Below, one piece after another: positions 5,749-64,000 of a DNA stretch of 64,000 nucleotides. Position 1 is the stretch's first letter. Each line of letters starts with the position of its first letter. Source of the DNA: Azolla caroliniana (lineage: Eukaryota > Plantae > Polypodiophyta); assembly GCA_043228905.1 (NCBI GenBank), contig JBHGNT010000002.1:3348001-3412000 (forward strand). Reading direction: 5' to 3'. The notes under the pieces were generated by a model, which ran no database searches, was not told the origin of the DNA, and saw nothing but the letters and a program-made list of their open reading frames with translations. The position numbers and the translations under genes are program-made.

Positions 5749-6690
5749 GACTGGAGCAATTATTCATCTTGGGAGTACAAGATGAACCAATACCTAGTCG
5801 GCCAAGGGTATTGGAGCTACATCAACGGCGCACTCGAAATCAAACCCGACATCACAAACGCCAACTACCCAATGTGCCAAGCTTGAGGGGGATTACAAGA
5901 GGGAACCAAATACCGTCCGAACCGGGTACCAGTTAAAGCGGACACATGATATCGTCTGAACCGGATACTAGCGAAAGCGAACATCAACCAAAAGGAGCCA
6001 ACCAAGTTGAGCATGAGGGGGCATGTTGAGAATCAAGCTCAACCTAGCCTTGTGTGTGAACACACCCTTTGAGAATCTATGAGCACTCAAAGGTCAAAAG
6101 TCACACCATTACTCTCTACACATTCATTATGTGTCATAGTGAAGAGAAATGCGCGGAATATCGCTCGGCCACAATCGAGTAGTAAAACACTTGTATAAGA
6201 ATCAAACACAGAAAAAAAGGGAGTGGAGAGTACACAAACAAAAAGGACACAGGATGTTTACATGGAAAACCCTAATAGGGAAAAACCACGGGATCCCACA
6301 GACTCCGAACTATCACTATGAAGAGAAAGGGGGTACAATCAGAGACTCGGAGGCAACGACCTCAAGCTCTATTTCTTTGCAAAGTGGCAGTTACAATAGA
6401 GTATCGCTTTGTATCTCTCTCTCTCTCCTTCTCGTTGACTATCTCTGTACAACAATATATCAACAACCAACCATCTAAAGTGATTGCCCTAAGTCATATT
6501 TATAGTTATATGAACTTAGGTCTATTTATAAATACAGCCTCAATGGGCTCATTCAAGACATATTTACAAATCTGTCTTTTCTTCCAATTCTCACCGGGTC
6601 CACCGATCCGGTTTTCGGATCTCTTTCGGTTCTCTTTATTTATCACTGGATCCCATCCGGAGAGACCGATTTTCCCAACAATATCCCCCT

Positions 6691-8447
6691 TCACTCCGGT
6701 ATGGGATGTCTTGTAAGTCCGATCTGCTTTCGGCATGCGTCCAACTTGTCAGGAGTCAGCACCTTGGTTAGCATATCCGACCCGTTCTCCTCCATGTCGA
6801 TCTTTGTCAGCACGAACTCTCGATCTTCAATTCGCTCCTGCATCCAGTGGTATCTGCGTTGGATGTGCTTCGTTCTGGAATGGTATGCCACGTTCTTTTC
6901 AAGGTGGATGGTTTGACTATCGCAGTAGAGCCGATATTCCTCTTGCCGGATCCCTCGCTCTCCGATGAAGTCCTTCATCCATAATATTTCCTTGCCGGCT
7001 TCCACGGTGTCGCGAAGATGCGTGTGCGAGCGTGCTTCGCTTGAGCGGGACCACCGGGGTCTTGGACCAAGGAGGATGTCCGTCAAGGTATTGAGAAGAA
7101 GACGATGTGAATGTAAGATTGGAGGAAGATCTAATAGACTTGAGAAGATTGAAGATTGTACACTTGAGAAGTAGATAAATAATTACAAGATCGATGCGAA
7201 GAAGAAGAAATAGAAGCTTATATTATTGATGGTGATGATGATGGTCATATCATATTGAGCCCCCCCCTTTACACAAGCCGTACTAGGGGTTTTATAGGTT
7301 TGTCCATGCACAAAACCATGGGCTTGGAGCCATGGTTTCTATGCACACAGTTTTGCTTTGTGACATGCAGGAAACCATGGGCTTAAAACCGTGGTTTTGT
7401 GTACACGGTTTTGTTCGTTTGTTTCCTACGGAATACTGAATATGAGAAAGAAATATAGAACATCTAAAGCACTTAGTAGTAGCTTTAGTGGTAAGGTAAT
7501 TGCCTCTTATCTTAGAGGTGCAAGGTTCAAATCCTACTTGCAACCCTCTACATGCACTCAATGCCATTGTGACCTAGGTTTATTTACTTTCATTTTTACA
7601 AGTATTCGTGAAATGTGTGTGGATCCTCAATTTTTGACTTTTTCTCGCACTAGACATGCCACATCACGACAACAGCTACCATGTACTCCGCCTCCGTTGT
7701 TGACAACGCAACCGTCTTCTGCAGCCTCGATTGCCACGAAACGGCTCCCCTGGCATAGGTCATGACATATCCGGAAGTTGACCGGCCGGTGTCCACATCA
7801 GCCGACATATCCGAATCGGTAAATCCTTCCATGAGGGGTTTACCAAAGCCGAATCAGAGGCACATACTTGAAGTGCCCTTCAAGTACCGGAGAGGCATAT
7901 GGAATCTTCATCATATTCGCATTCTCTGCCTTTGTCTTCGGGCTTTGCTTACCTGATAATCTGCAGTTTGTCGGGAGTGTCGATGCGATCAGTTTTACTT
8001 TTGACATGTTAAACCGTTGAAGCACCTTTGTCACGTACTTTTCCTGTGACAGCCATAATTGCTTCTTCGACCGGTTCCGGATGATGTGTATCCCCAGTAT
8101 CTGTCTTGTCGGACCCAAGTCTTTCATTGAGAAGGTTCGGTTAAGGGCCTTCTTCAGCATCTGTATCTTGACTTGGTCTTGTCCGACGATTAACATGTCG
8201 TCCATGTACAGGAGCAATATCAAGAAATCTCCTCCCTCAAATTTCTTCACAAACACGCAGTGATCGGCCTGCGTCTTGGGGTACCCTTGATCAGTCATGA
8301 AGGATTCAAACTTCTAGTACCATTGCCGGGGAGCTTGCTTCAGTCCATACAAGCTCTTCTTCGGCCGGCACACCAAGTGGTCCTCCCCTTTCTTCTCGAA
8401 TCCTTCCGGTTGATGCATGTAGATCTCTTCTTTGAGGTCTCCGTGTA
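6691..8447 (-). pseudogene. pol: RT/RNase H part of the decayed Tork pol, interrupted by the 7008-7671 insertion
   Basis: ORF fragments LYMDDMLIVG, TEAEY and HSRTKHIQRRYHW match the 983-5056 protein. Confidence 0.9.
7008..7671 (-). mobile_element. Solo-LTR-like insertion of the tRNA-Trp Gypsy family, containing inverted repeats and a tRNA-like box
   Basis: Termini TGTCGCG... and ...CACGACA match the 21129 and 19286 LTRs. 4-bp TSD ACGG (7004-7007) / ACAG (7672-7675) splits the RNase H EAEYMxAV|EAGKE motif. Confidence 0.8.
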
Positions 8448-17743: not shown

Positions 17744-18010
17744 TGTCATGATATGGCAAGACTCGAACCCATGACCTTATGTTATATGGGTCGAGCTCTT
17801 GACCATTATACTATCTATTGTAATACGTAGGATATTATTTTCATTTAAGTTTTATTATAGGAAATTAATGTATATTCCAGATTTCTATGGAACATTCTAG
17901 AAGCTTCAAGAATCCTCCCGAGAACACTATAAAAGGAGGCACATGGCATTATGTTGAACCAAATTGGTTCAAACTGTCAGGAATAGTACTAAAACAGAGA
18001 GAGAATTAGT
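17744..18010 (+). mobile_element. Rearranged chromovirus LTR fragment: U3 on + (17744-17972) fused to an inverted U5 end (17975-18010)
   Basis: Matches the 49883 LTR from TGTCATGATATGGC to TTGGTTCAA, then switches to the reverse complement of that LTR's end (TGTCAGGAATAGTACTAAA). PPT-like GGAGGGTGA lies upstream. Confidence 0.85.
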
Positions 18011-38430: not shown

Positions 38431-39149
38431 AAGAGCTCACATTCTAAAGTTGATTGAGCTACTCTAGGAGAAAATCGATATGGGGATCCTCGAACCTTCC
38501 AATCCACCATATTTGAATCGATGGTTCATTATGCGAAAGAAGAATGGGAGCTTGCACTTTATTCAAGACCTACAACCCATCAACAAGGTGACAATTCACA
38601 ATGCAGAGTCAAACCGAGTGTCAATGAATTTGACGAATCCTTCGCGAGAAGATGTATCTACTTTAACAAAGATCTGTACTCAGGGTATGACCAATTCCAA
38701 CTAGTCGTGAAAAGCAAGGATATTGTCGTGACTTGAGAATAGGAGAGAGAAAAATAAGATGATAGTAGAAGGTAGAGGGAGAGAGAGAGAAAGAAAGAAC
38801 ACTAGAAATGGAAAGAGAGTTTATATTATAAGAGAGCAAGGATTACAAAGAGTAGGCTAAGGAGCTACAAACTGGTGTCGAACCGAATGAGTTGTGATGA
38901 ATGAATAGACACCTATTTATAGGTCCTTATGGAGTATTTTAGATGTTCTGGAATATTTTAGATATTTATGATATTTAATATAATCATGGAATATCCTAGA
39001 ATGTTCTAGAATACTCTAAATGTCTTGTAATAATTAATAATACATTTATTATAACTATCCATCATATATGTTAGTATAATGGTTAAAGGTCTAACATATA
39101 GACCAAGACGTCTTGGGCTCGAATCCTTGTAAGGCCAAAATGTATGTTG

Positions 39150-42100
39150 TCATGACATTATCCCGCCTTTTCGAAAACGAGTTCCACGAGTCAAAAGACA
39201 AGATTTCGGACTTGGCTTATGAGGATATTTGTTGTGAAATGCAGCAACCATTTTGGAGGCATTAGCAAGATTCTCAAGAGGTTCCCATGTTCGATCATTA
39301 GGTGTATAACCTAACCAGTCAACCAAATAATACAGTTTGTTGCGAACGATCTTGGAGTCGAGAATGGCAGCAACTTCATATTCGGAGCCATCCGAAACTT
39401 CGATTGGAGGTGGGGGAGATGTATGACGGCCTGGAATAGAGTTGGTTGTGTACGGCTCCAAAAGTGAAACATGGAAGACCAGGTGAAGATGCATATGAGG
39501 GGGAAGATCAAGGCGAAATGCCACATCATTGATCTTACCAGATATTACATATGGGCCAAAACGTTGATAATCCAATTTGCAGCAAGGTCGGGTTGTTTTA
39601 ATGCGACCTTGTAAAAGCCATACTCGATCCCCCACTTGAAACGTAGTCGATGAATCACGTCGATGACGGTCGGCAACCTTCTTTTGAGTGTTTTGAGCAT
39701 CACATAAATGGTGCAAAAGGATATCTTGAACTTCTTGGAGTCGGGTGAGCCGATCTTCAACAGTCGGGTTTGTCAGGAGTTCGAGATGTTCAAGCATAGT
39801 CCAACGAGGATGGTACCCAATGTTTGCAAAAAATGGGGAATATCCAATAGAAGAATGTTCTGAGTTGTTGTAAGCAAATTCCGCCAAATGTAATAGATCA
39901 ACCCAATCATCTTGTTGATAGTTGACAAAACAACGAAGATATTGTTCTATTGTTTGGTTGGTGCGCTCACTCTGTCCGTTAGTTTCTGGATGGTAGCCGG
40001 AAGAGAGTTTGCAAGAAGTATGTAAGAGTTTGAACATGTGCCGCCAAAATTTTGAGATGAACTGGGGACCCCGATCACTGATAATATCATCAGGAAGACC
40101 ATGATGCCGAAACACCTCTCGCATGAGTAACTCGGTTGTCTCTTGGCTCGTAATGGCCTTTGTGCAGGGAAGAAAATGTGCATCTTGGTAAAACGATCTA
40201 CTACCGTGAGAATAGAATCAAAACCCTTGGAAGGTGGTAGATCCATAATGAAGTCCAATGAAATAGATTTCCATGGACTCTCAAGAATAGGCATTGGCTG
40301 TAATAAGCCATATGGATGATGTCGAGGTTTTTTGGATCGGCAACATGTATCACAACTGCGAACATAATCCGTAACAAAATGGCGAAGTCGTGGCCACCGA
40401 TACCTTCGAGAAATTAACGCCAAAGTCTTGTGGATGCCAAAATGTCCAGCCATTGGTGTATCATGACATTGTTGCAAGACTTGGAGTCGAGAAGGACCAT
40501 CAGGCACATATAAGAAATTTTGTCGAAAAAGTAAACCATCATGCCAATTGAACTGGTTGTAGTCTTGACGAGGATTTTGAGATTGTGAACAAGAAGCACG
40601 ATCTGGGATAATATGGCTCAGAATATCTTGGGCAAATTCATCAGTCTCAATATGCTCCCGAATGGAGTCTAGAAGACTTGAATCCTCGGGTGTGTCTATA
40701 GCATGAAAAGCCATTAGTCGTAGACGGTCAGGACCCAAGAGGATTTGCTTCTGACTTTCAAATGCGGCCTCTCCTGGTTGAAGTTCCATATATGAACGCC
40801 GAGATAAAGCATCTGCTTTGCCTTGTTGCATCCCAGGGCGATATAGAATTACGAAATCAAAACGAGTTAAAAATTGCGCCCAACGAGCTTGTCGACGACT
40901 CAAGACTTGAGCACTTTGGAAGTACGTTAGATTTTTGTGATCATTATAGACAATGATTTGTTGAGACGAACCCTCCAAAAAATGACGCCATTGTTGAAAA
41001 GAATCCACAATGGCAAGAAGCTCTTTGTCGTGAATCTCATAGTTGATTTCTGCAGCTTCGAATTTCCGTGAATGAAAAGCCACATGGTGCAGTTGGCCAT
41101 CATTGCTAATCTAGGATAATACGCTTCCTAGTGCGAAGTCAGATGCATCAGCTTCTAGTATAAAGTGCTTCAATGGATCAACATGCATCAAAATTGGTGC
41201 GGATGTAAATGCTTGCTTTAATCCTTCAAATGCAGAGTTTGCATTTATACTCCACACAAATGGTTGATTCTTTAGTGTCAGTTGAGTGAGGGGCAATACG
41301 ATCTTTGAATAATCTTTGATGAACTTGCGATAAAAGTTTGCAAACCCTAAAAAACATTGTACATCTCGCACAAACTGTGGTGTTTGCCAATCCAAAACTG
41401 TTTGAACCTTTGCTGGATCCATAGAGATGCCATGTGAAGAGACTATGTACCCCAAAAATTCCACTTGACGTTGGTCAAAGCTGCACTTCTCCAATTTTGC
41501 ATAGAGAACATTTTCACACAACCGTTGTAAAGCTTGTCGAACGTGTATATCATGATCCTCTTGAGTTTTTGAGTAGATCAAGATATCATCTAGGTAAATT
41601 ATGACGAAAATATCGAGGAAATCTCGAAAAATGTCATTCGCCATATGTTGGAAAACTGTTGGTGCATTCGTGAGACCAAATGGCATCATTGTATACTCAA
41701 AATGGCCATAGCGAGTACGAAAAGCAGTCTTCCATTCATCCCCAAGACGAATTCGAACAAGATTGTAAGCACCTCGAAGATCTAACTTTGTGAAATACTT
41801 AGCTCCATTGAGGCGTTCCAGAAGGCTCGAAATCAATGGTAGAGCATATCGGTTTCAAATAGTTACTTTATTTAATCCTCGATAATCCACGACCAGACGA
41901 AGCAAACCATCTTTCTTCTTAACGAAAAATATGGGTGCGCTGGCAGGAGATCTTGAATGTTGGATAAACCCATTCGCCAAGTTCTCATCGATATATTCCC
42001 GAAGAACCTCTAACTCTGTGGGTGAAAGGCTATAAATTGGCCCCCATGGAGACTCTTTTCCGGGCTGCAAATCAATCGGACAATCATATGGTCGATGCTC

Positions 42101-42793
42101 TGGTAGTCTATTGGCCTTCACCTTATCAAAAACATCGGAGAATTCTATATATTTCTTCAGTAGTTGGACCCCCGATTCTTGTGAGCTCGATGTGGGAGTT
42201 GCTAAAACTGCGAACACCAACATGTCTTCCTTCCATCCTTCCTCACGTAATTGATGTATAGAGATTGTCGAAATCTTTTGGAATGTCATATCCTTTGTTG
42301 GATTTTTAAGAGGGTCAGATTGTATTGTGACTTCTTCAATGGTTCTTTTTCTCCAATCAAAAGTTGGGTTATGTAGCTCAAACCATGGAAGACCAAGAAC
42401 TAGGGAGTGCTCTGGACTACTAATGATGTTGAATGAGATGACACTATCCAAATTGCCTAGGACTACATGAATTGGTTCAGACTCTTCAACTATATCACCT
42501 GATGCTATGGGGCGTCCATCAATGACTCTGACTGACACTGGGCTTGGGAGCTTATGCAACTGAATATTATGCATTACAGCAAACTCACGATCCATGAAAC
42601 AAGAGTTGGCTCCAGAGTCTAAGAGGGCAGAAGCTGGGACTCGATGGCACCTAGATGTGTTAAGCTCAACTTGTGCAGAGAAAACTCGACTAACTTGACC
42701 GGATGAAATGGAACCACAACTAGGGACGGACGTTACATGCCTAGGGCTATCCAACCAAATGGCTCCGATTTTGGCCGGACTTACTCGTTTAAC
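39150..42793 (-). pseudogene. pol: pol (protease, RT, RNase H, integrase, chromodomain) with a few lesions
   Basis: LLDSGA, YLDD, ADASD, HHCC zinc finger, SDRGPQF, GPY and chromodomain in successive ORFs. Confidence 0.95.
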
Positions 42794-44351
42794 ACATCAT
42801 CTAATTGGCTCAAAACATCAAATGTATTTTTATGACAGGGACTACTAGGCCTACTTGGGTTACGAGAAGGCGGGGCAGAAATTGAGATGGGATTGTCATG
42901 AGCACTTACTTGGTTAACTTGTCGTCGTGGTTTATGTGGACAATTCACAGCAATATGCCCTAGACCACCACAATAGAGGCATAGACGATTCGCTCGCCGT
43001 CGTTGCTTTTCAGCATCCGATAATGGTCCTCGACGTCGTGTTGTCTCGATTTCCATTGGAGTAGGGCTTTCCACCACACTTGACTTTGATACTTGGGGTG
43101 GAGTTGCAACCACCGAAGCATATGTTTCTGTTGGTCGAAAGCGTAACATTTGTTGGCGCTCAGAACGCCGCTCAAATAAGCGATTGTCACATCGCACGGC
43201 CCGGCTTACTGCTTTAGTAAGAGATTTTGGATCATCATGGAAGGTAAGAAGTAAATCCTTCACATCATTGCGCAGACCTTGACGAAATTGGTCCATTAAT
43301 GCCGCCTCGTCCTAGGGAATATCACATGCTAGAAGGCGAAAATCTGCAGCATAAGCGGAAGCAGGACGATCTCCTTGTCGTAATCGCCGAATTTTGTTTA
43401 TTGCAGTCCTCATACTATCAGTGTCTCCAAAGTTGGCTTGGAACTCATTAATAAACCCTTCAAAATCTTCTAATAATGGTGAGTGTCAGGAATAGTACTA
43501 AAATAGAGATGGAATTAGTACTAAAGAAGAGCAGTACTATTAGTACTAAGAGGACGGGACTGCGTAAGACTCCCGAGAGAGGAAGTGAGAAGAGGAGAGA
43601 GAGAGAGATAGCGAGAATGAGAGAGAGAGAAAGATGATGACAGCAGCTAATATATTATGTGAAAGATAAGTACAAAGCGGCTAAGAGGCTTAAGACTGGC
43701 GTTGAACCAATTTGGTTCAACATAATGCCTAGTGCCTTCTTTTATAGTGTTGTCAGGAGTAATCCTGAAACTTCTAGAATGTTCCAAAGAAATCTGGAAT
43801 ATACATTACTTTCTTATAATAAAACATAAATGAAAATAATATCCTATGAATTACAATAGATGGTGTGATGGTTAAGAGCTCGACCCATATACCATAAGGT
43901 CATGGGTTCGAGTCTTGCCATATTATGACAATGAGTGCTTCTCTAGGAGTGGTGCAAACCACGCTAATGCGGTACTCGTTAACAAGGTACCAACTAGACC
44001 CACACGAGCAACATTAGTTGGGTAACGGCTAGGATGCAATTTAATCACAAGCCGTACCTGATTTAAAAATCCACGAAACTGAGACCTTGTACCATCAAAC
44101 TTGGCCGGCAGACTAATCTTGGGTTCCTTCGGCGAGGTTTGAACTTCCGCCGCTTGTCGTTGCAATAGAGTAGTCTCCAATTGATGCACCCGTTGAGATA
44201 ATTCTTCATATTGTTGTACTTTCTCAGCACTTACTTGTTGTAGGTCTCCCAGCAATCTTTGATTTTCATACTCTAGTGCCACGAATTTGGTTGTTAGCAT
44301 TTCGAGCTCAGAGAGAACACGCATATATTCTTGTTTGCTGACGGACTCCAT
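42781..44351 (-). pseudogene. gag: gag (coiled coil, capsid, CCHC) interrupted by a solo LTR
   Basis: PKISLPAKFDG, PMEIE and CLYCGGLGHIAVNC. Confidence 0.92.
43484..43930 (-). mobile_element. Solo LTR of chromovirus family B
   Basis: Reverse complement of the 49883 LTR. TSD GTGAG/ATGAG. Confidence 0.92.
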
Positions 44352-46363
44352 AGTTGCGATAGAAAATTGCTAGATTTGGTTGAATAAGGTTAAGATAAGA
44401 AGAAGAAGTTGGAGAAGAAGAAAAGAGATAGATTCGGTTCAAACTGTCGTGACTTGAGAATAGGAGAGAGAAAAATAAGATGATAGTAGAAGGTAGAGGG
44501 AGAGAGAGAGAGAAAGAGAGAGAAAGAACACTAGAAATGGAAAGAGAGTTTATATTATAAGAGAGCAAGGATTACAAAGATTAGGCTAAGGAGCTACAAA
44601 CTGGTGTCGAACCGAATGAGTTGTGATGAATGAATAGACACCTATTTATAGGTCCTTATGGAGTATTCTAGAATGTTCTGGAATATTTTAGATATTTATG
44701 ATATTTAATATAATCATGGAATATTCTAGAATGTTCTAGAATACTCTAAATGTCTTGTAATAATTAATAATACATTTATTATAACTATCCATCATATATG
44801 TTAGTATAATGGTTAAAGGTCTAACATATAGACCAAGACGTCTTGGGCTCGAATCCTTGTAAGGCTAAAATGTATGTTGTCATGACAGATATCACGGTGA
44901 ACCCCTATCAGCCTAGTGCAAATGTGTACCTTGCCACAAGGAGGCACAAACTTTGTTGCCCACTTTGTTGCCCACATGGTGAATGCAATGAACAAGGTAT
45001 TCAGAGATTGCATCCGAACATCACCATGTCATTCCTCGACAACATTCCAATAAAGGGGTGTCCAAAACCGGACAAAGATGAGACCTTGGACGGGGAGGGA
45101 TGCAAGCATTTCGTGACAGAGCATATCACTAAGTTTGAGAAGGTGTTGCAAAGATTGGAAGATGTGCACCTAACCTTCTCATGCGAATTGGAATTCGGTC
45201 AATCGAAGATTCTCATGGTAGGACACTTGTGCAAGGCATATGGACAAAAGCCATCCTCATCAAAGGTGGACACCATCTAAGAAATGAAGGAAGAATGTAA
45301 ATCACAAACAGAAATGATGTGATTGCTTGGGTGCTCGTGCATTCTACCATATTTGGATTCCACACTACGTTCACATAGTCAAACCTTTGCACGTTCTTAT
45401 CAAGAAATGAAGGAAATTCAAATGGGAAGATGAGCACACAAAGGCAATGAGGAAGACCTCATCAACAACCTTGAATGCCATTTGAGGCAAAATTAGGAGT
45501 TAATACTTGCAATCTAATATTCCAACTTTGACATTTTAGCATCTTGTTGCTTTATCCTTAGTTCCTCTAGTAATCTATACTCAATGATCACATACTTCAT
45601 AGCATCACATGAGAGCTCCAATAGATCTTTTACTCCCCATGTCTTACAATTTCATAATGTCAAACACCCAACTAGATGAGAGGATTTTGCTCTTATTAGT
45701 TTTTTGTTTGTTGCATCCTATGTTCCAAGCTTATTTGGGTAATCTATCAGGCATATCCTTGACCTTTGTTATATATGTGTGTATACTCTTTGCAAGGTGG
45801 TAGATATTAGCAATGCACTTACTACGTAGTCTATTCAAATAATCCTTCACCAAATCATCTTACATAATCATGCCTCCAAATGGGGTGTATTACAAGGGTT
45901 TTTATAGTTGTGGGTGATGGAGAGAGATAGTTTTGCATTGCATGCATTGTTTGGATATTTTGTATTAACTACTATTGGACTCTTTAATGAGCTCATATCA
46001 AATATTTTACTATATCCTTCAGGGATCAACTAATTTTCTATTACCTAAATGGCCCTTTTATTATGATCGTTGTCGGTTGGTTTACATAGCACCCCCTATA
46101 ACATGGGGTCATATCAATAGTTAACAAAGGGTATAAATTACAGAATTGTCATTCCTACTTTTTCCAAAAAAGAATATACTCCATTAGTTAAAATATACAT
46201 GAACACGATCCCTTTCTCAGGTAGGCCGTGCCAAGATTATCCTAGCCTACATACGAGAGATCTCACTTATTTATCTTACACTTTTACATATGACTCAAGC
46301 CATCCTTTCAGATACATCACCTACCTTCACTATCCCACTTGCCATGTCTTTCACACCCCTCGT

Positions 46364-46665: not shown

Positions 46666-47414
46666 CAAGTTTTTGATTCTGTACACAAGTTGTAGGTACC
46701 CCGTTGAATTGTCATTCCTACTTGACTTACACTAGATGCATTCAATGTTGCATCTAACTTCACTTTCATGTACCTTACCAAGGGATGTGCACTAATAATG
46801 TGAGCTTTAGCTTCCACCATATAATATGGGGGAAATATTATAATTAAATATGTAAAAAAAACAAGAGAAACAATATTAAAAAAATCCACAAAACTTGTGT
46901 TTTATCTATACCATAGCTATCTAGATGAAAGAATGAACCAATGGATCCATGTACAAATGAGCCGTCTTCTAACTTTAAGATACACTTTGAAAGTAGACGT
47001 TGTGTGCACATGACATATTAACATAGAAATGTAACATTGACCCAGTCGTTCAACATGTATTGAATATCTTGAGCATGCCAAAATAGGGTTACAATTAGAA
47101 CCAAACTATTTCCTTGAGGCATCAATAAAACATGTGTGAGGGCAAGTTGGAAGCTTAGAATGCACCCCCAATCAACCCATACACTCACATGTGTTGATAT
47201 GTATATGCATTATGATCTCTAAAAAGCCTAGGTAACCACATAATAAAAAAATGAATTTGGAAACACTTACCCAAACAAATAATCATTTATAACCCATGTT
47301 CCAAGAAAAATCAGCCCTAAGATAGAAGTTTCATAGGATACTCTCTATAACTTAACTATATGCAACATGTCCATAAAAGAAAACCATGAATGAGAGTGAA
47401 ATAGAGCAATAAGC

Positions 47415-47925
47415 AAACCAGAGAGGCTCACTTGATTCAATCATAAAAATTGTCCATACCCAAATACAAAACATCAAAATACATTCACAAAATTCATACA
47501 TTTATCACAAAGAAGCACACTCATGAAATTTTAATCACAATAGCCACAACTTCGTATACTTCTTCGCTTTTCTTCCAAAAACCAGAGAGGCTCACTTGAT
47601 ACGATCATAAAGTTTGTCCATACCCAAATACAAAACATCAAAATACATTCACAAAATTCATACATATATCACAAAGAAGCAACACTCATGAAATTTTAAA
47701 TTTTAAGCACAATAGCCACAACTTCATATACATACTTCTTTGCTTTTCTTCCAAAAACTAGAGAAGCGCACTTGATACGATCATAAAATTTGTCCATACC
47801 CAAATACAAAACATCAAAATACATTCACAAAATTCATACATATATCACAAGAGAAGCAACACTCATGAGATTTTAAATTTTAAGCTCAATAGCCACAACT
47901 TCATATACTGCTTCATTTTCTTCTA
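47415..47925. repeat. Tandem repeat, ~165-176 bp x3
   Basis: Units start at ~47415, 47579 and 47755 and share TTGTCCATACCCAAATACAAAACATCAAAATACATTCACAAAATTC. Confidence 0.92.
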
Positions 47926-48049
47926 ATTGTACAAAACTTCATCTAAGCAAGAAGCAAGATTCCTACTTTACGACATAGAACTATTCTCTCGTAGGTGGTA
48001 TGATTTCCTAGTTAAAAAGCATGTAGGCAAGGTGCTTTGTCAAATAAGT

Positions 48050-49877: not shown

Positions 49878-50027
49878 CATTGTGTCATGATATGGCAAGA
49901 CTCGAACCCCTAACCTTAGATTATATGGGTCGAGCTCTTGACTATTATATCATCTATTGTAATACATAGGATATTATTTTCATTTACATTTTATTATAGG
50001 AAATTAATGTATATTCCAGATTTCTAT

Positions 50028-50073
50028 GGAACATTCTAGAAGCTTCAGGATTACTCCTAAGAACACTATAAAA
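50028..50073 (+). promoter_or_regulatory. Heat-shock element (four nGAAn units) and TATA box in the LTR U3
   Basis: GAA-CA-TTC-TA-GAA-GC-TTC at 50029-50046 and TATAAAA at 50067. Confidence 0.75.
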
Positions 50074-50400
50074 GAGGGCACTAGGCATTATGTTGAACCA
50101 AATTGGTTCAACGCTAGTCTTTAGCCTCATAGCCCTTTTGTACTTACTCTTCTTATAATATATAATCTGTAATCATCATCTCTCTCTCTCTCTCGTCCTC
50201 ACTATCTCTCTCTCTCTCCTCTTCTCTCTTCCTCTCTCGGAAGTCTTACGTAGTCCCGTCCTCTTAGTTCTAATAGTACTTCCCTTCTTTAGTACTAATT
50301 CTCTCTCTATTTAGTACTATTCCTAATAGTTTGAACCAAATTTTCCCTTCTGTCTCTCTCCCTTCATACTAATCTCTTATTCCTCTTTTCTTTTCATCCC

Positions 50401-51545
50401 ATGGCCACAGTTAGCGCTCAGGAATATCAATCTGTTTTCTCAAAGTTTCAATGCTTGAAAGAGAAGTTCCTTGCTTTGGAACAAGAAAATCAACGGTTGA
50501 TGGGGGATCTTCAACAAATCTCCTTACAAAAGCAACAAACGCAACAACAATATGGGGAACTTGCATTACGCATGCAACAACTCGAAGCAACCATCGTAGC
50601 GATGCAACAACAAGGCCCCGGAACACAAGGGATTCATAAGGAACCCAAGATTGGCCTTCCCACGAAGTTCAATGGAACACGATTGCAGTTTAGAGGGTTC
50701 CTTAATTATGTATGATTAGTTATTCAAATGCATCCTTCCCGATATCCTACTAATGCATCACGAGTGGGTTTAGTAGGGACGTTGTTAAGTGGCTCAGCAT
50801 TGGCATGGTTCGCTCCACTGTTGGAAAAGGAGTCTCCATTACTCAACAACTATGAAGAGTTTATAGGTGAGTTTAAAGCATGCTTTGGGGATACTGATAG
50901 CATAAGGACCGCAATCAACAAAATCCGGCGATTACGCCAAGGAGACCGTCCAGCCTTCACATACGCTACAGATTTCCGCCTACTCGCCGCTGACATCCCT
51001 TGGGATGATCAAGCGTTGATGGAGCAATTTTGTTATGGTTTACGCAAAGATGTCGAGGATTTACTCTTAACTTTCCCTGAAGAGCCAAAGTCCTTAACAT
51101 AAGCAATCAGTCGCGCAGTGAGATGTGATAACCGCCTCTTTGAGCAACGTTCGGAACGACAGTTACAGATGCCGAGGGCAAGATCAGAGCCCACCTACGC
51201 CTCAATGGTAGCAAAACCTTTACCCAGGGAGTACTATAATGCGCCTCCAGTGAATACTCTGACTCCGATGGAGATTGACACTACACGTCGTCAAGGACCA
51301 TTATCCGAAGAAGAAAAGCAGCGACGCCGAACAAATCGACTATGTCTCTACTGCGGTGGACCAAGACACATTGCAATAAATTGTCCCCAAGAAGACAGGT
51401 AAACCAAATAGTTGCTAGTTCTAATTGTACTAAACCCGAGCCTATTACAGTAGGGATATCTGATAGTACTAATAGTACTAATAACCTAGATCTAGCGAAC
51501 AAATTTGATGTCCTTAGTCAGTTAGAAGAAGAGTTAAACGACTAA
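50401..51545 (+). pseudogene. gag: gag with premature stops
   Basis: EPKIGLPTKFNG, PMEID and [14 protein letters not shown]. Confidence 0.92.
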
Positions 51546-54500
51546 GTCCAACCAAAATAGGAGTCGTTTGGTTGGACAGCCCTAGATCTGTGTAGCCCAT
51601 TAGTGGTTCCATTCCCTCTAAGCAAGTTAGCAATGTGTTCATAGCCCAAGTAACAGTTAGTACTAAAAGTACCCCTCCAGTACACGTCTTAACACTTCTA
51701 GACTCTGGAGCTAATTCTTGCTTTATGGATAGGAATTTTGCCCAAGCTCATCAGATAGCTCTTAGAAAACTCCCGTGTCCAGCCTCTGTAGTCGTCATTG
51801 ATGGTCGTCCCATTGCTTCCGGAAATATCATAGAAGAGTCAGAACCCGTTAATATTGTCCTAGATAACTTAGCATGTATAGTATCATTTAACATTATTAG
51901 TATCCCAGAAAATCCCATCGTTTTGGGATTACCATGGTTCGAGTTACATAACCCAGACATAGATTGGAGAACAAGAGAAATCCAGTGTCGACAAACCCGA
52001 GGATCTACTCAAAAGATTGCCACCATTTCACTACATCAGTTGCGAGAAGAAGGACGCAAGGAAGAAATGTTTCTCTTCGCAATATCACTAAAACCCTCCG
52101 ACACCATTAAAGAGGAGTCCATCGTTCAGCTTCCAAAGAAGTATCATCATTATGCCGATATATTCGATAAAGTACGAGCCAATACGCTTCCTCACCATCG
52201 ACCATATGATTGCCCCATCGATTTACAACCAGGGAAAGAGCCACCATGGGGACCGATCTACAATTTGTCACCAACCGAGCTAGAAGTCCTTCGAGCCTAT
52301 ATAGAGGAGAATTTGGAGAATGGATTCATTCGACATTCGAAATCTCCATCCGGCGCACCCATTTTCTTCGTCAAGAAAAAGGATGGCTCACTTCGTCTGG
52401 TGGTAGATTATTGTGGCTTGAATAAAGTTACAATCCGCAATAGGTATGCACTTCCCCTTATCTCAAGTCTTTTAGAACGAATCAATGGTGCCAGGTTCTT
52501 CACAAAGATCGACTTACGGGGGGGGCCTATAACCTCGTACGGATCCGACCAAGAGATGAATGGAAGACCGCGTTCCGCACTAGATATGGGCACTTCGAGT
52601 ATACGGTCATGCCGTTCGGCCTCACTAATGCGCCAACAGTCTTCCAGCACATGGCAAATGATATATTCCGAGATCTCTTGGATGTGTGTCTGATCATCTA
52701 CTTGGATGATCTACTGGTTTATTCAAAGACCGAAGAAGCGCATGATTCTCATGTACTGTTAGTACTCAAACGACTTCGAGAACATGGTCTTTACGCAAAG
52801 CTAGAAAAATGTAGTTTCGGGTGCAACCAGGTGGAATTTCTCGGCTACGTCATTTCATCAGAAGGCATCTCCATGGACCCAGCTAAGGTCAAGACGGTAG
52901 TAGAATGGTTTTTAGGCTTTGCCAATTTTTACCGGAAGTTTAAACAAGATTACTCAAAGCTCGTTCTACCTCTCACACAGCTTACCAGGAAGGGACAATC
53001 GTTCGTTTGGTCTGAAGAAGCAGATATGGCTTTCGAGAGTCTTAAAAAGGCATTTACATCGGCTCCAATTCTAGCTCATGTCGATCCGGAACAACCATTC
53101 ATTATCGAAGCTAACGCATCGGATTTCGCATTGGGGAGCATTCTATCACAACGGGGTCATGATGAGAAGCTACATCCTGTGGCTTTTCACTCACGCAAGT
53201 TTGACGCCACCGAAATCAATTACGAAATTCATGATAAGGAGTTATTGGCAATAGTGGACTCGTTTATGCAATGGGGGCATTTTTTAGAGGGATCCTCTCA
53301 TCAAGTCACCGTATTCAGTGACCATAAAAACCTTGCCTACTTTCAAGATGCTCGTGTGTTAAATCGACGGTGCGGGATGTGCAATGGTTTTTAGGCTTTG
53401 CCAATTTTTACCGGAAGTTTAAACAAGATTACTCAAAGCTCGTTCTACCTCTCACACAGCTTACCAGGAAGGGACAATCGTTCGTTTGGTCTGAAGAAGC
53501 AGATATGGCTTTCGAGAGTCTTAAAAAGGCATTTACATCGGCTCCAATTCTAGCTCATGTCGATCCGGAACAACCATTCATTATCGAAGCTAACGCATCG
53601 GATTTCGCATTGGGGAGCATTCTATCACAACGGGGTCATGATGAGAAGCTACATCCTGTGGCTTTTCACTCACGCAAGTTTGACGCCACCGAAATCAATT
53701 ACGAAATTCATGATAAGGAGTTATTGGCAATAGTGGACTCGTTTATGCAATGGGGGCATTTTTTAGAGGGATCCTCTCATCAAGTCACCGTATTCAGTGA
53801 CCATAAAAACCTTGCCTACTTTCAAGATGCTCGTGTGTTAAATCGACGGTGCGGGATGTGCAATGGTTTTTAGGCTTTGCCAATTTTTACCGGAAGTTTA
53901 AACAAGATTACTCAAAGCTCGTTCTACCTCTCACACAGCTTACCAGGAAGGGACAATCGTTCGTTTGGTCTGAAGAAGCAGATATGGCTTTCGAGAGTCT
54001 TAAAAAGGCATTTACATCGGCTCCAATTCTAGCTCATGTCGATCCGGAACAACCATTCATTATCGAAGCTAACGCATCGGATTTCGCATTGGGGAGCATT
54101 CTATCACAACGGGGTCATGATGAGAAGCTACATCCTGTGGCTTTTCACTCACGCAAGTTTGACGCCACCGAAATCAATTACGAAATTCATGATAAGGAGT
54201 TATTGGCAATAGTGGACTCGTTTATGCAATGGGGGCATTTTTTAGAGGGATCCTCTCATCAAGTCACCGTATTCAGTGACCATAAAAACCTTGCCTACTT
54301 TCAAGATGCTCGTGTGTTAAATCGACGTCAAGCTCGGTGGGCCCACTTCCTCACGCGTTTCGACTTCAAAATTACATATCGTCCGGGGAAGCACCAAGGG
54401 AAGGCAGATGCATTATCACGACGTTCGTATCTAACACCGCGTCCCGGCAAGCCGGCTTTCGATAACCAAAAGCAAGTAATCTTGGGACCGGCACGACTGC

Positions 54501-56057
54501 AAGCAACACAGGTTTTTGGCATGCCCATGGATTCCCATGTTATCAATATCATACGTGCGGACCTGAAGACAAACGCTTTCGCCCAAGCTATACTAGCACA
54601 AATTGATCCCTCTCGAGCGTCGTGTTCACAGTCACAACCACCAGGTACGGACTATCAGCAATTCAAATACCATGATGGATTACTCTTCTTTAAAGAACTT
54701 TTGTATGTTCCTAATGGTTCTTGCCGCCTTCGAGTAGTACAAAGTTGTCATGACACATATACAATTGGGCATTTTGGTAGTACTAAAACATTAGATTTAG
54801 TACAACGATCATTCTGGTGGCCCCGTATGCGACAATTTGTCGAAGATTTTGTTCAGACTTGTGATACATGCTGCAGAGCGAAAATGCCAAGGCATCATCC
54901 ATATGGTTTATTAGAACCATTACCAATTCCAAGCAAGCCGTGGCAATCCACTGCTCTCGACTTCATCACAGATCTTCCAGACTCTAAGGGGTTCAATGCG
55001 ATTCTAACAGTGGTAGATCGATATACAAAAATGGCTCATTTCTTGCCATGTACTAAGGAAATCTCCAGTGAAGACACCGCTGAAATTGTCATGCGTGAAG
55101 TATGTCGACATCATGGACTTCCCAATAGTATCGTCAGCGATCGTGGACCCTAGTTCGTGTCAAAATTCTGGAAGCACCTTATTTAAAATGCTCAAGGTCA
55201 CTTGTAACCTCTCCTCCGGCTACCACCCACAAACCGACGGCCAAGCTGAACGAACAAATCAAACGTTGGAGCAGTATCTGCGGAGCTTTCTCAGCTATCA
55301 TCAGGATAACTGGGCAGATATTCTCCACTTCGCCGAATTTGCCTATAATAACTCTATCCACGCATCAACTAAAGTTATGCCATTTTATGCTTATACGGGA
55401 TGTCACCCTCGGTGGAGTGTACTTGAAACCCCAAAGGTGTCCATAAATCCTTGCGCGGAGGATCGTTTGGAGCAGTTACGCAAGATACAAGCAGAGTTAT
55501 CTACTCATCTCCAGCAAGCTCAACAAACACACAAGGTCTACGCGGATCGTCATCGACTTCCATCTAGTTTTAACATTGGAGATCGGGTGTGGCTGCTACG
55601 ACGACACATCAAGACTACTCACCCATGTGAGAAGTTGGATTATCGGCGATTAGGTCCTTTCCGTATTATCGGAAAGATTAATGATGTCGCTTTTCGTCTC
55701 AATCGACCTCCTCAACTTCGGATACATCCAGTGTTTCATAGTTCTCTCCTTGAACCCTATCACGAGAGCACCATCCCAGGACGTATTATACAACCTCCAC
55801 CCCCGATCGAGCTTGAAGATGGACCAGAGTACGAGGTTGCCGCCATCCTTGATTCCAAGATTGTTGGCAACAAGCTCTACTATCTAGTTGATTGGCTAGG
55901 CTATAGTCCCAACGAACGTACTTGGGAACCGATCGAGAATGTGACCAATGCTCGTGCGCTTCTTGAAGACTTCCATCGTCAATATCCACACAAACCAGGT
56001 CCTCCATCCAAAAGGACTCATGACACTTGTCGTTTTAAAGGGGGGATAGTGTCATGA
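51533..56057 (+). pseudogene. pol: pol with frameshifts and a triplicated RNase H segment
   Basis: LLDSGA, YLDD, RNase H three times, integrase SDRGP and chromodomain. Confidence 0.93.
52903..54327 (+). repeat. 479-bp tandem triplication inside pol
   Basis: Units at ~52903 (5'-shortened), 53370 and 53849 give identical translations. Confidence 0.96.
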
Positions 56058-56330
56058 TATCAAGACTCGAACCCATGACCTTAGGTTATATGGGTCGAGC
56101 TCTTGACCATTATATCATCTATTGTAATACGTCATTTACATTTTATTATAGGAAATTAATGTATATCCCAGATTTCTCTGGAACATTCTAGAAGCTTCAG
56201 GATTACTCCTGAGAACACTATAAAAGAGGGCACTAGGCATTATGTTGAACCAAACTGGTTCAACGCCAGTCTTTAGCCTCATAGCCCTTTTGTACTTACT
56301 CTTCTTATAATATATAATATGTTATCATCG

Positions 56331-56361
<31 letters not shown>

Positions 56362-59300
56362 CTCGCTATCTCTCTCTCTCTCCTCTTCTCTCTTCCTCTC
56401 TCGGGAGTCTTACGTAGTCCCGTCCTCTTAGTTCTAATAGTACTTCCCTTCTCTAGTACTAATTCTCTCTCTGTTTAGTACTAATCCTCTCTCTGTTTAG
56501 TACTATTCCTCTCTCTGTTTAGTACTATTCCTCTCTCTGTTTAGTACTATTCCTGACACATTGTGCATGAAAATTGTAAGCCTTTGGGCACATAAGCTTA
56601 AGTTGTAGCATTCACATGTTTTTCTTAATACTAAAGAGGAAAATCTTTAAAGGAAAAAACAACATATATTATAATTTATTAGCATGAATAAGTCATATTA
56701 AGACGATTGAATGGTTCATTGAATAAACACATATGCTTGATAGATGATTGTTGATATGAATATATAATAATCCCTACGACTTTGCCATCAATAGCTTTTA
56801 CCTAATATTTGAGATATATTGTTCCATAACTATTTGGATAATTTTATGTTGAATACGTGTATATCTCAAAAATTATGTTGATGTGCATTTTAGCATTGTT
56901 TTCCATTTTAGTCTATTGATGGCATGACAACTTTTAATGTGAATGACCAAATCGTATAAGAATTTTTTATCAATGTTTGCTTTTAGCTTGGGATTTGAAT
57001 TAAATGAATGGACATGATTTTGTCATTGATGGGAAAGAAGAAGAAGAAGAAGAAGAATAAGCGATTTCATAAAGCTAAAAATGTTGCATTAGGTTATCTC
57101 CAAGATGACATTGCCTTTCATAAGGTGCTCTTTTTAATATCACTTTACCCATTACAAACTTCTTCTTGTGCAATGGCTTGACTATAATTATGAATGAATT
57201 TTTAGTTTAATTTGGTTGGTTCAATACTTCATTTTATGTGATATGGAGCAAGTTACTTTTCTTTATTTTCATGTTATTCTAAGTCAAGAAGTGGGAATTA
57301 GTTAAGAAAATGTAACTTTTTTGAAGAGGGCAATGTTGCCCGTGACACCAAAACAATAGATATATTTGTGCGTTCACTTGATTGAGAAATGAAATTCATG
57401 AGACTCAAAATCAAGTAGAGAAAAAGCAAGGGGTAACAAATTTGCTTTAAACCAAGTAGCTACAATCCAAAGGAATGTTTCAGAAAGTTAACATGCAAAA
57501 CATTGATTTGCTTGTTTCAACAATATTGAGACTGAAAATTTCGTTTCCATCGAAGAAGGATCATTACCGCCAACTATTATAAGAATACAAAATAGAATTA
57601 ATTAGGTCCTTTTAAACTGTCATGAGGCAGTTGAATGAATCATATTCAACTTCTACTTAAATAACTTGGATGGTTGAAATGGACCTAACTTGACCACAAT
57701 TTCTAGTTGTTAAAAAAATAAATAGTCTTATGTAGGCAACGAGACACATCAGGATCAATTCAAATGGACAAATATTAGAGAAGCAACTTGCACAAAGCTA
57801 AAAATGTTGCACAATATGGCATTACCTTTTATAAGTTACCTCTTTTTTAATATCGCGTCATCCATTGCAAGTCTCTCGTGCACAATCACTCCATTTTTTA
57901 TTCGATTTTGCTAGCTTGATACTACATTTGTAGATTCATTTTGTTGATTTATTGTTATTAGAGTAATGCTTGATCAAGAACCGGGAATTATTTAAGTGTT
58001 TGGTTACACTTTATACATAATTTACCCCTCCAGGGTTTTTTTTTCCAATCCTTCTCATACTTTTGTTGACGAGCTGTAAAGCTTATTTATTCTTCATTGA
58101 TTATCATGGAATGGAGTTCTGCTTTAGAAATTCGAGTAATGATTTGACTTTCATTATGGTTACGCTTTCTAGCTAGCAAGACATGCAATAATGAATATAA
58201 TATACTCCAACATTACATCATTGTCTAGGGAAGTATCTAACTAGATTTTCTTTATGGAGACCTATTCATCTTTGGACAAACGGTTAATGTAAAGAAAAGA
58301 CTTACCCTCACCAAGTGACCATCTTCCTATTCTTGAATAAAGGCCCCTTTGTATGCCAGCATAACCAACCATATCTTGAGATCCTAAAAGTACCTTTGGA
58401 TAATTTTACTCATAATTTTTTTTACCTCACTTTTCACCCAACTTTCATAAGGCAAATTGATACTAATGTGTTGGTAGCTTCTGCTATTGCTTTCGGTCGT
58501 GGTCCTAATCAAGGTCAATCAAATACCTATCATATTATGCTCACAAGCCAGCTGCTCGTGCAAGAATCATCCATGGCCCATGCTAGCTTGTCAATCGATG
58601 CTTCTCTTGTAGTTCTCCGTTGTCCTCTTTTCTTTCTTCATGGGATGAGGGCCTACAAAAAAACAAAACATTAGGTAATGAGTTGAATCTTGATCAACTA
58701 TATATTTTGCCACCTATTGAAAATGGCCTTTCAAGCTCATAGATTCGTCATCTCTTGAGGATGGCCCACCAACCATATGAAATAAATAGAATTCCAATGA
58801 TGTGTGCAATGTGTACCTTTTGCCACCTAACAATAGAAAAAGACAAGCAAGACCAAACAGATGATAAGGCAAGGTGTAACATCTTTCAAGAGCATTTTTT
58901 TGAGTGTACTATTCCTAATGTCTTGCATCCATTGAACATCTTATCCGAAAGAAACGAAGTAACATGTATACTATGGCACCATAATGACTTGAAGTAGTAT
59001 TTGAAGATAAGAAACCTAAGCGATCAATGTAGTAAACATCACAACCCAAGTGTCAAATATGTTCACATAGTTAAAACCTCGTTTTTGTTGAGCTACCTTA
59101 CCAATAAAACAATTATAGAAGTAAACAACTTGTTGCATGTTCGAGAAACAAAAAACACTAAGAAAAGGAAAGACACTAAGAAGCTCATTGCTTGAAGGGA
59201 AGACAATTGTAGTGCATAACTCAATGACATAAATCATAATATAGAGAGAAACTAAAAAGAGGCCAAAAGAGACTTCGCAAGAGATATTTGTTGCAAACGG

Positions 59301-62778: not shown

Positions 62779-63273
62779 ATTCTTCTTCTTAATTCTTCTT
62801 TCTTCTTTCTTCTTCGCAATCGTTGAGTTCCTTCTGAGCCGAAAACCTGCAATGTCTGATCACGTCGCCATCAATTTGGACGCCGCTGAAACAATTCCAT
62901 GGGGAGGACAGGTTTGCTTCCCGTAATCCTTCATTACTCTTCCAAATTTTTGATGTTTATGAAACTATCGCTGTCTCTTTCCCTCCATTCTTCTTCTTCT
63001 TCTCCTGCTCCTGCAGAGAACTGGACTTTGATTTCTCTCTTCTTCTTCTTCTTCTTCTTCTGCGGAGAACGGTTATCTTTCCTGTGAAATTTCCTTTTGC
63101 GTTCTTCAGCAGGCAGGCCCGAATTTCTCTTTTCTCTCCGTTCATTCTGCAGACAATGTCTGCCTTTTGCATTCTCGCCGTTCGTTCGAAAGAACATTCC
63201 TTCTGCGTTCTTCTTCACTAGGCAGGCTCGCTGTGGCATTCTCTCCCGTCTTTTGTGCAGAGAATGAACAGTG

Positions 63274-63675
63274 TTTCTTTCTCTCCGTTCTTCTTCAGAA
63301 GATGAATGCCTTTTCTTTCTAATTCTCTCATTCTGCGGAGAGGGGATGGTTTTTCTTTCTCTCCGTTCTTCTTCAGAAGATGAATGGTTTTTCTTTCTAT
63401 TCTCTCAGTCTGCGGAGAGGCAATGGCTTTTCTTTCTCTCCGTTCTTCTTCAGAAGATGAATGGTTTTTCTTTCTATTCTCTCATTCTGCAAAGAGGGAA
63501 TGGTTTTTCTTTCTCTCTGTTCTTCTTCAGAAGATGAATGCTTTTCTTTCTATTCTCTCATTCTGCGAAGAGGGAATGGTTTTTCTTTCTCTCCGTTCGT
63601 CTTCAGAAGATGAATGGTTTTTCTTTCTATTCTCTCATTCTGCGGAGAGGGAATAGTGTTTCTTTCTCTCCGTTC
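63274..63675. repeat. ~77-bp tandem repeat x5
   Basis: Unit TTTCTTTCTCTCCGTTCTTCTTCAGAAGATGAATG starts at ~63274, 63352, 63429, 63506 and 63583. Confidence 0.92.
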
Positions 63676-64000
63676 ATCTGCATTTGCTTCCTTATCGTTA
63701 ACCTGCAGAGAATGGTTTTTCTTCTCGCATCATTAACATGTGCAAGCGGTTTTTTCTTCCGCGGAGAAACGGTTTGCTTTTTCTCTGCCTATCACTTAAC
63801 AATACGTCGTTCGCTTCAAAGCCATCCTTTTCTTCAAGGCTTGGTCGGACATTGCCGCTTCTGTTGATTGTAATACAAGGAGGGGACGGAGAAGAAGAAG
63901 ACGAAGGAAGAGACGGAGAGGAAGAAGAAGGAAGAACACGAATAAAGAAGAGAAAGCAGAAGAATTAAGAAGAAAGATATGTTGCCATGTTACCTGACTT

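Follow-up and report, generated by a model that had tools for sequence, protein, structure and literature searches.

A putative tRNA-type Pol III module facing outward from the LTRs of Tcn1-like chromoviruses, and its possible role as a chromatin barrier

Pol III modules in LTRs have previously been known from short, non-autonomous elements, which use them for their own transcription. Among these, Helenus (TRIMp3; Kojima 2024, PMC10886601) already carries tRNA-derived boxes in its LTR. The portions of that paper drawn on here deem a shared stretch in the LTRs of autonomous partners unlikely, and state of Repbase that 'not a few LTRs' there look like a portion of a tRNA, only TRIMs being followed up; as those LTRs are mentioned without description, a database note on them may exist. 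For the Tcn1 clade of chromoviruses, the sections cited here describe self-priming in mosses and club-mosses (PMC6317226) and a moss chromovirus, RLG1, which lies in heterochromatic islands yet is transcribed (PMC7466625). In the openly searchable literature we found no description of a tRNA-type module in Tcn1 or other autonomous LTR elements, and the parts of PMC12859917, PMC12789967, PMC3286476 and PMC11963269 drawn on hold nothing on such a module. The first-pass annotation of the locus knew of no such description for Tcn1-like elements, and none was found here; it did not take account of Helenus, in which tRNA-derived LTR boxes as such are already documented.

The window, by which we mean the whole 64,000-nucleotide stretch of Azolla caroliniana DNA that was analysed, is a nest of plant LTR retrotransposons. 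It holds several Copia elements and two Ty3/gypsy chromoviruses, A and B, and the features that concern us are as follows.

38724..44887, minus strand: element A, a Tcn1-like chromovirus; LTRs identical at 429/434 positions; target site GATAT on both sides
44445..44887, minus strand: 5' LTR of element A, with HSE arrays at ~44666 and ~44724, TATA at ~44645 and self-primer at 44606-44617
44432..44444, minus strand: PBS of element A, a complement of the start of R; the element self-primes and has no site for a tRNA primer
49883..56558, plus strand: element B, a Tcn1-like chromovirus; LTRs identical at 409/427 positions; target site CATTG; PBS at 50329
43484..43930, minus strand: family B solo LTR interrupting gag in element A, with target site GTGAG/ATGAG; it has an HSE array at ~43772, TATA at ~43741 and self-primer at ~43701
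17744-17972: truncated family B LTR, its module on the minus strand
7008..7671, minus strand: family C solo LTR within a Copia fragment; TGTCG...CGACA ends; TATA near 7290; imperfect target site

By Pfam, element A contains gag, PR, RT, RNase H, integrase, SH3 and chromodomain, its coding sequence being broken by stops and frameshifts as well as by the inserted family B solo LTR. RT, RNase H, integrase, SH3 and the chromodomain are present in both A and B, the PR-RT-RH-INT order with a C-terminal chromodomain is found in each (Pfam; sizes 6.2 and 6.7 kb), and the aromatic cage Y...W..Y is intact in both. A chromodomain of this kind is linked to heterochromatin targeting. With internal regions that are 67% identical and an LTR layout common to both, A and B are one inheritance, that is, homologous Tcn1-like self-priming chromoviruses, and the two families therefore count once and not as independent cases. 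The first-pass annotation had called them otherwise dissimilar and had treated them as independent, and neither description survives this comparison. In a search, the RT is closer to amphibian sushi-type matches (53-61%, full length) than to seed-plant ones (44-50%), and the tree of relatives described below has no named Tcn1 reference among its rows; SM-Tcn1, as given in supplement S3 of PMC2864245, is similar to the window elements by eye. The family C LTR has no match to A or B, elsewhere in the window, or in any fetched related locus.

Some further observations belong to this setting. Element B has an exact 479-bp tandem triplication within RT/RNase H (52904-54327), the 100% identity of which suggests either a very recent event or an assembly artefact. 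The pol stop codon sits in the first bases of the 3' LTR (56050-56057 and 39150-39157), which places the PPT within the coding frame. Outside the studied elements, tandem arrays of ~77 bp and ~165-175 bp units lie at 63253-63706 and 47392-47926.

[quoted passage not shown] Self-primer and PBS change together across the families represented by the related loci L004, L009, L011, L013 and L018, a covariation that we take as proof of self-priming. The same complementarity can be seen by eye in SM-Tcn1, though the part of PMC2864245 used here reports that element without priming evidence. In the truncated family B LTR (17744-18010) the self-primer is followed by ~40 nt of reverse complement of the PBS and U5, an arrangement suggestive of template switching to self-primed strong-stop cDNA. 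The notion that the self-primer is itself a second B box was rejected, because it varies together with the PBS.

Six LTR copies in the window had been said to carry A-box and B-box motifs, and in all six the motifs lie where they had been placed. A seventh, absent from the first-pass annotation, lies in the family C LTR. They are listed here with tRNA position numbers, together with one upstream zone.

43861..43914, plus strand, antisense to the LTR: module of the family B solo LTR; T8 at 43861, G53 at 43906, C61 at 43914; 27.7 bits
44802..44855, plus strand: module of the element A 5' LTR; T8 at 44802, G53 at 44847, C at position 54; 25.3 bits; RF00005 11.9 bits
39072..39125, plus strand: module of the element A 3' LTR; T8 at 39072, G53 at 39117; 25.3 bits
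49899..49952, minus strand: module of the B 5' LTR; T8 at 49952; A box damaged, G18 lost; 19.8 bits
56064..56117, minus strand: module of the B 3' LTR; T8 at 56117; 26.2 bits
17760..17813, minus strand: module of the truncated B LTR; T8 at 17813; 29.7 bits, the top score of the window
7480..7533, plus strand, antisense: seventh module, in the family C solo LTR; G53 148 nt from the LTR start; 24.5 bits
43811..43851, plus strand: AT-rich zone (~80% AT) in the family B solo LTR, lying 11-50 nt upstream of its T8; candidate TFIIIB/TBP landing zone

All six A/B-family copies are antisense to the element and confined to the LTR's first 70-86 nt. The distance from T8 to G53 is 45 nt in each of them, as had been claimed. 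The A-box/B-box profile used for scoring has prokaryotic-virus tRNAs as its source: 121 viral-contig loci yielded 484 distinct tRNA genes, of which 331 entered it, leaving out tRNAs that bear the search motif or are without the D-loop GG or T-loop pattern. The 249 class I tRNAs of the training set have a median of 31.2 bits and a 5th percentile of 20.8. Among 127,884 window positions the six copies take ranks 1, 2, 3, 4, 5 and 7 (19.8-29.7 bits), rank 6 being the family C module. Twenty dinucleotide shuffles of the window gave top scores of 17.0-22.1; five of the six copies exceed every shuffle, and the B 5' LTR copy with its damaged A box does not. Nothing of at least 18.3 bits was found in the window outside the seven modules. 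A module in the window's Copia LTRs was also considered and rejected, there being no match of at least 18.3 bits in them.

Relatives were gathered with an integrase-chromodomain alignment, which gave 79 loci from metagenome contigs (best 80 of 529 matches). The LTR start was placed in 62 of these (9 by hand) and in none of the other 17; 3 were too short, leaving 59 scorable loci. Over the LTR's first 150 nt, 14 of the 59, all from the best 80 of 529 matches, score 18.6-30.5 bits in antisense; the other 45 reach at most 11.3 bits, and in sense nothing exceeds 9.2. A quick tree was made from 77 rows (L042, L043 and L052 dropped as short segments, L019 having no segment), and the carriers fall in two starred clades of it. 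One of them has the module in 12 of its 12 scorable rows, so that membership of this clade was not picked by score. In the other, L016 and L028 carry the module, L011 (coverage 160) has a decayed one with a TA expansion in the spacer, and L013 has none. The tree needs two changes, and the module may nonetheless have had a single origin, since the test on a quick tree of 29 rows fails to reject one clade uniting the carriers, L011 and L013 (p-AU 0.13). The printed LTR of Selaginella SM-Tcn1 (PMC2864245, supplement S3) has no module by eye. Judged by the decay in L011 and the absence from L013 and SM-Tcn1, the module is evidently dispensable for Tcn1 elements. A search of viral contigs gave no relatives among 65 candidates.

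A separate observation comes from L004, where two copies of one element, 84% identical (~1005-1063 and 6330-6386, minus strand), each have an antisense A/B module. These extra modules lie in frame within the protease-RT linker of pol, score 22.3 and 22.9 bits, and are identical at 16/20 positions around the B box and 10/17 in the spacer; they could be a second capture or chance. A general PR-RT linker module was rejected, as of 19 linkers found the two copies in L004 have it and the other 17 do not.

The conservation set comprises 14 rows, L001 being dropped as a duplicate of B and L004 as a duplicate of L003. T8, G18, T20, A44, T47 and G53 are invariant in all 14, and A14, G19, G46, T55 and A58 are held in 13; with one row per lineage, 12 tRNA-invariant letters are retained in 7 or 8 of 8. 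Between the 8 lineage groups (integrases 54-77% identical to the query) identity is 0.55 at positions 8-15, 0.95 at G18-G19-N20, 0.85 in the variable loop 44-47 and 0.73 at 53-61. Elsewhere it is near the composition level, at 0.28 downstream and 0.34 both upstream and in the anticodon-arm spacer. At the free A-box letters 11-13 the identity between lineage groups is 0.35, and position 59 also varies freely. The variable loop lies outside the profile; AGGT occupies 44-47 in 9 of the 14 rows, and being the commonest tRNA form there (47/207) it supports a tRNA or SINE origin. In the related loci the distance from LTR start to G53 ranges over 25-58 nt while that from T8 to G53 stays at 44-47 nt, a constancy that is partly built in, the scan having been restricted to spacings of 43-48.

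Comparison of the boxes with the rest of U3 across relatives had been proposed as a check on the first reading, and it came out in favour, with 0.55-0.95 against 0.28-0.34. These values also bear on a neutral explanation, in which U3 once received a piece of a SINE or tRNA and has carried it since without function. The decay in L011, the loss in L013 and T54C in family A would fit it, but a relic should decay evenly, and between lineages the boxes are kept at the higher values while the spacer, acceptor arms and flanks have fallen to the lower ones. A neutral relic is therefore largely refuted, and we hold it to be improbable. The boxes, on this pattern, bear the mark of selection for a linear Pol III promoter motif. 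Additionally, the zone from 11 to 50 nt upstream of T8 has an AT fraction of 0.83 (n=11), compared with 0.60 for 10 near relatives that do not have the module (p 0.0003, a nominal value as the rows are related). Of the features of a Pol III type-2 promoter, the A and B boxes at tRNA spacing and the AT-rich upstream zone are both present, and a close terminator is absent. Box profile and conservation together support the central proposal of the first-pass annotation, a putatively tRNA-derived, outward-facing Pol III type-2 module in Tcn1-like chromoviruses.

Broken invariant B-box letters number 1 of 42 in high-coverage contigs against 8 of 56 in low-coverage ones (p 0.07, nominal for the same reason of related rows). 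Family A is a spreading family with a weakened B box: position 54 is C in ~95%, 85% and 93% of contig depth in runs X4, X7 and X13, and T in a fourth, and position 10 is T in 89-100% of contig depth. G10T is found in 5 of the 14 rows. The majority of family B restores A14 (72% in X4). Among the family B variants listed (40 of 63), those in the module fall at the free positions 12 and 20a and in the spacer, and none lies within 43893-43930. Peaks of contig depth over the B box, HSE and self-primer were set aside, since summing contig depth does not give a copy number. Of 10 carriers with a complete U3, 7 have HSE arrays and L008, L009 and L018 have none. The link to an adjacent heat-shock promoter drawn in the first-pass annotation thus fails as a fixed association, 3 of 10 such carriers having no HSE array.

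The module had also been described as tRNA-shaped, which holds for the linear order of its boxes and not for a cloverleaf. Standard tools, to which detection had been referred, do not recover a tRNA: ARAGORN finds none in the window, and Rfam none at threshold on the whole window, on 43800-44000 (family B) or on 9 related loci, the best RF00005 score being 11.9 bits (gathering 29, E 9.6) at 44803-44867 in family A. Relaxed ARAGORN gives scattered non-specific calls, including 7473-7546 and L028. Across the 14 rows the acceptor stem is paired in 39% (cross-family null 35%; 473 of 2000 shuffles reach the observed pairing), the D stem in 66% (60%; 194), the anticodon stem in 40% (33%; 95, borderline) and the T stem in 67% (67%; 1107), so the earlier remark that the acceptor stems are not kept was correct. 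There is no stem covariation, and RNAalifold gives no consensus fold on either strand of the carrier rows. A conserved RNA fold was rejected on the absence of a consensus fold and of clear stem pairing above the null, and with neither covariation nor fold the signal is linear and of DNA type. By cloverleaf score and stems, the module is not a tRNA gene. In the B subfamily (window 17755-17800, other B copies; L052) spacer and B box pair to give a long hairpin of non-tRNA type, with z about -4 to -6 against doublet shuffles; it was not found across other lineages.

A T-run terminator is likewise not kept behind the B box. The first T4 lies at +55 to +1081 in 13 loci and at +97 to +733 in the window copies, and what is conserved is accordingly not a defined RNA product. 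This spread weighs against a working antisense Pol III promoter whose RNA matters for copy-number control or silencing, the 3' LTR giving a short RNA over the PPT and the integrase end and the 5' LTR one that enters the flanking DNA. The boxes, their tRNA spacing and the AT-rich DNA upstream do amount to a complete type-2 promoter, and in several 3' LTRs the first T4 comes ~95-110 nt on, opposite the PPT. However, an RNA antisense to its own genome should harm the element, and we judge this explanation unlikely.

Alternatively, the conserved letters might act in RNA, with the U3 of the genomic RNA behind the PPT pairing with host tRNAs at their D arm and at their variable loop/T arm. Such an anti-tRNA site would serve packaging, end-bridging or strand transfer, as Ty3 is served by the 3' half of its bipartite primer site. 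The U3 of HIV-1 contains a tRNA-like antisense stretch. Antisense orientation and a place right behind the PPT fit this idea, the two conserved blocks (8-21 and 44-61) take in the variable loop, T54C would retain a G-U pair, and a second module is found inside the pol of L004. In Ty3, according to the part of PMC5371799 cited here, tRNAiMet pairs with U3 by way of its T and D arms. Yet these elements self-prime, on the evidence of PBS-R covariation and of the cited sections of PMC6317226, so that no tRNA primer needs holding. Furthermore, the free variation at positions 11-13 and 59 points to a degenerate box and not to pairing with one tRNA, G10T (5/14) breaks the pairing, and the AT-rich upstream zone is left unexplained. 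We regard an anti-tRNA site as rather unlikely; if the module does bind tRNA, this would be an unexpected tRNA contact in a self-priming lineage.

A conserved outward module in elements that are full-length and driven by Pol II must serve some purpose other than the one known from short elements. As it faces outward, it cannot transcribe the element, and it stands between the flanking DNA and the TATA box, which is 114-183 nt away. Tentatively, and at somewhat less than an even chance, we propose that the outward A/B module is a TFIIIC/TFIIIB platform serving as a chromatin barrier for the Pol II promoter of the LTR. A tRNA gene or SINE head would have been captured into U3, its A and B boxes would bind TFIIIC, and TFIIIC would load TFIIIB on the AT-rich DNA just inside the module. 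The resulting complex would form the barrier, leaving the LTR Pol II promoter usable after insertion in silent chromatin, and reverse transcription, by copying U3 to both ends, provides each new insertion with the module. In the parts of the papers cited, tDNA barrier function in yeasts needs the A/B boxes (PMC7990762), and land-plant tRNA genes have an AT-rich upstream zone for TFIIIB (PMC13578239). The intact chromodomain of the elements and the transcription of moss RLG1 out of heterochromatic islands (PMC7466625) likewise speak for a barrier. Our literature search found no tDNA barriers in plants.

Several points argue against a barrier. The variable loop is conserved to the same degree as the B box, something the core box model does not call for; in each LTR only the U3 side is guarded by the module; and the spreading family A has a weakened B box, with L011, L013 and SM-Tcn1 decayed or without a module. 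If a barrier it is, it would answer how chromodomain elements in silent chromatin remain expressible, and plants would gain a first clear test case for TFIIIC boundaries. More broadly, and with less assurance, it is possible that heterochromatin-seeking plant chromoviruses carry their own tDNA-type barrier against silencing, captured more than once, scattering many boundary-setting TFIIIC sites genome-wide. Candidates for separate captures are the two Tcn1 clades, the unrelated family C LTR and the in-frame pol-linker insert of L004, and under the barrier reading a high-copy family would be spreading such sites across the genome.

A bound platform might instead act as a landing pad or decoy, attracting or steering insertions of elements that home on TFIIIB/TFIIIC. 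Ty3-type targeting of Pol III sites is established, which counts in favour. Among the few sites available, however, none of the 7 window LTR copies has an insertion upstream of the module, and the insertion sites of A, B and C have no high-scoring box pair next to them, which leaves this a very slim prospect.

How, then, do these elements with their proposed barrier compare with described systems, as far as the cited portions of the papers go? Helenus shares the tRNA-derived boxes in the LTR, but it is a non-autonomous, non-coding TRIM of 311-1263 bp, whereas the elements here are autonomous-type chromoviruses of 6-7 kb with gag-pol and a Pol II TATA promoter. In the LTRs of the Helenus supplement the boxes lie in sense, fit to transcribe the element, in contrast to all 14 loci and 7 window copies here, which are antisense (PMC10886601). 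Cassandra and Ajax TRIMs resemble the present case in having a small-RNA-gene Pol III promoter in both LTRs, but theirs is 5S-derived and transcribes a non-autonomous element (both per PMC10886601).

The Tcn1 clade itself (SM-Tcn1, moss PpatensLTR/RLG1; PMC2864245, PMC6317226, PMC7466625) matches the window elements in domain order and aromatic-cage chromodomain, in TG...CA LTRs of ~440 bp with a 5-bp target site, in the self-priming PBS and in the CAACACCAG motif behind the self-primer; the difference is that the cited portions describe no tRNA-type module. The bipartite primer-binding site of Ty3 (PMC5371799) is comparable in that the U3 of the genomic RNA is complementary to tRNA T and D arms, but Ty3 primes from tRNAiMet and matches one tRNA, whereas the present elements self-prime and hold generic tRNA letters only. 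The tDNA/TFIIIC barriers known from S. cerevisiae and S. pombe (PMC7990762) are host genes that stay at their loci and whose function has been tested, whereas the module described here is a mobile candidate without cloverleaf or terminator. What it shares with them is A/B boxes, AT-rich DNA upstream and a place at the edge of an open domain.
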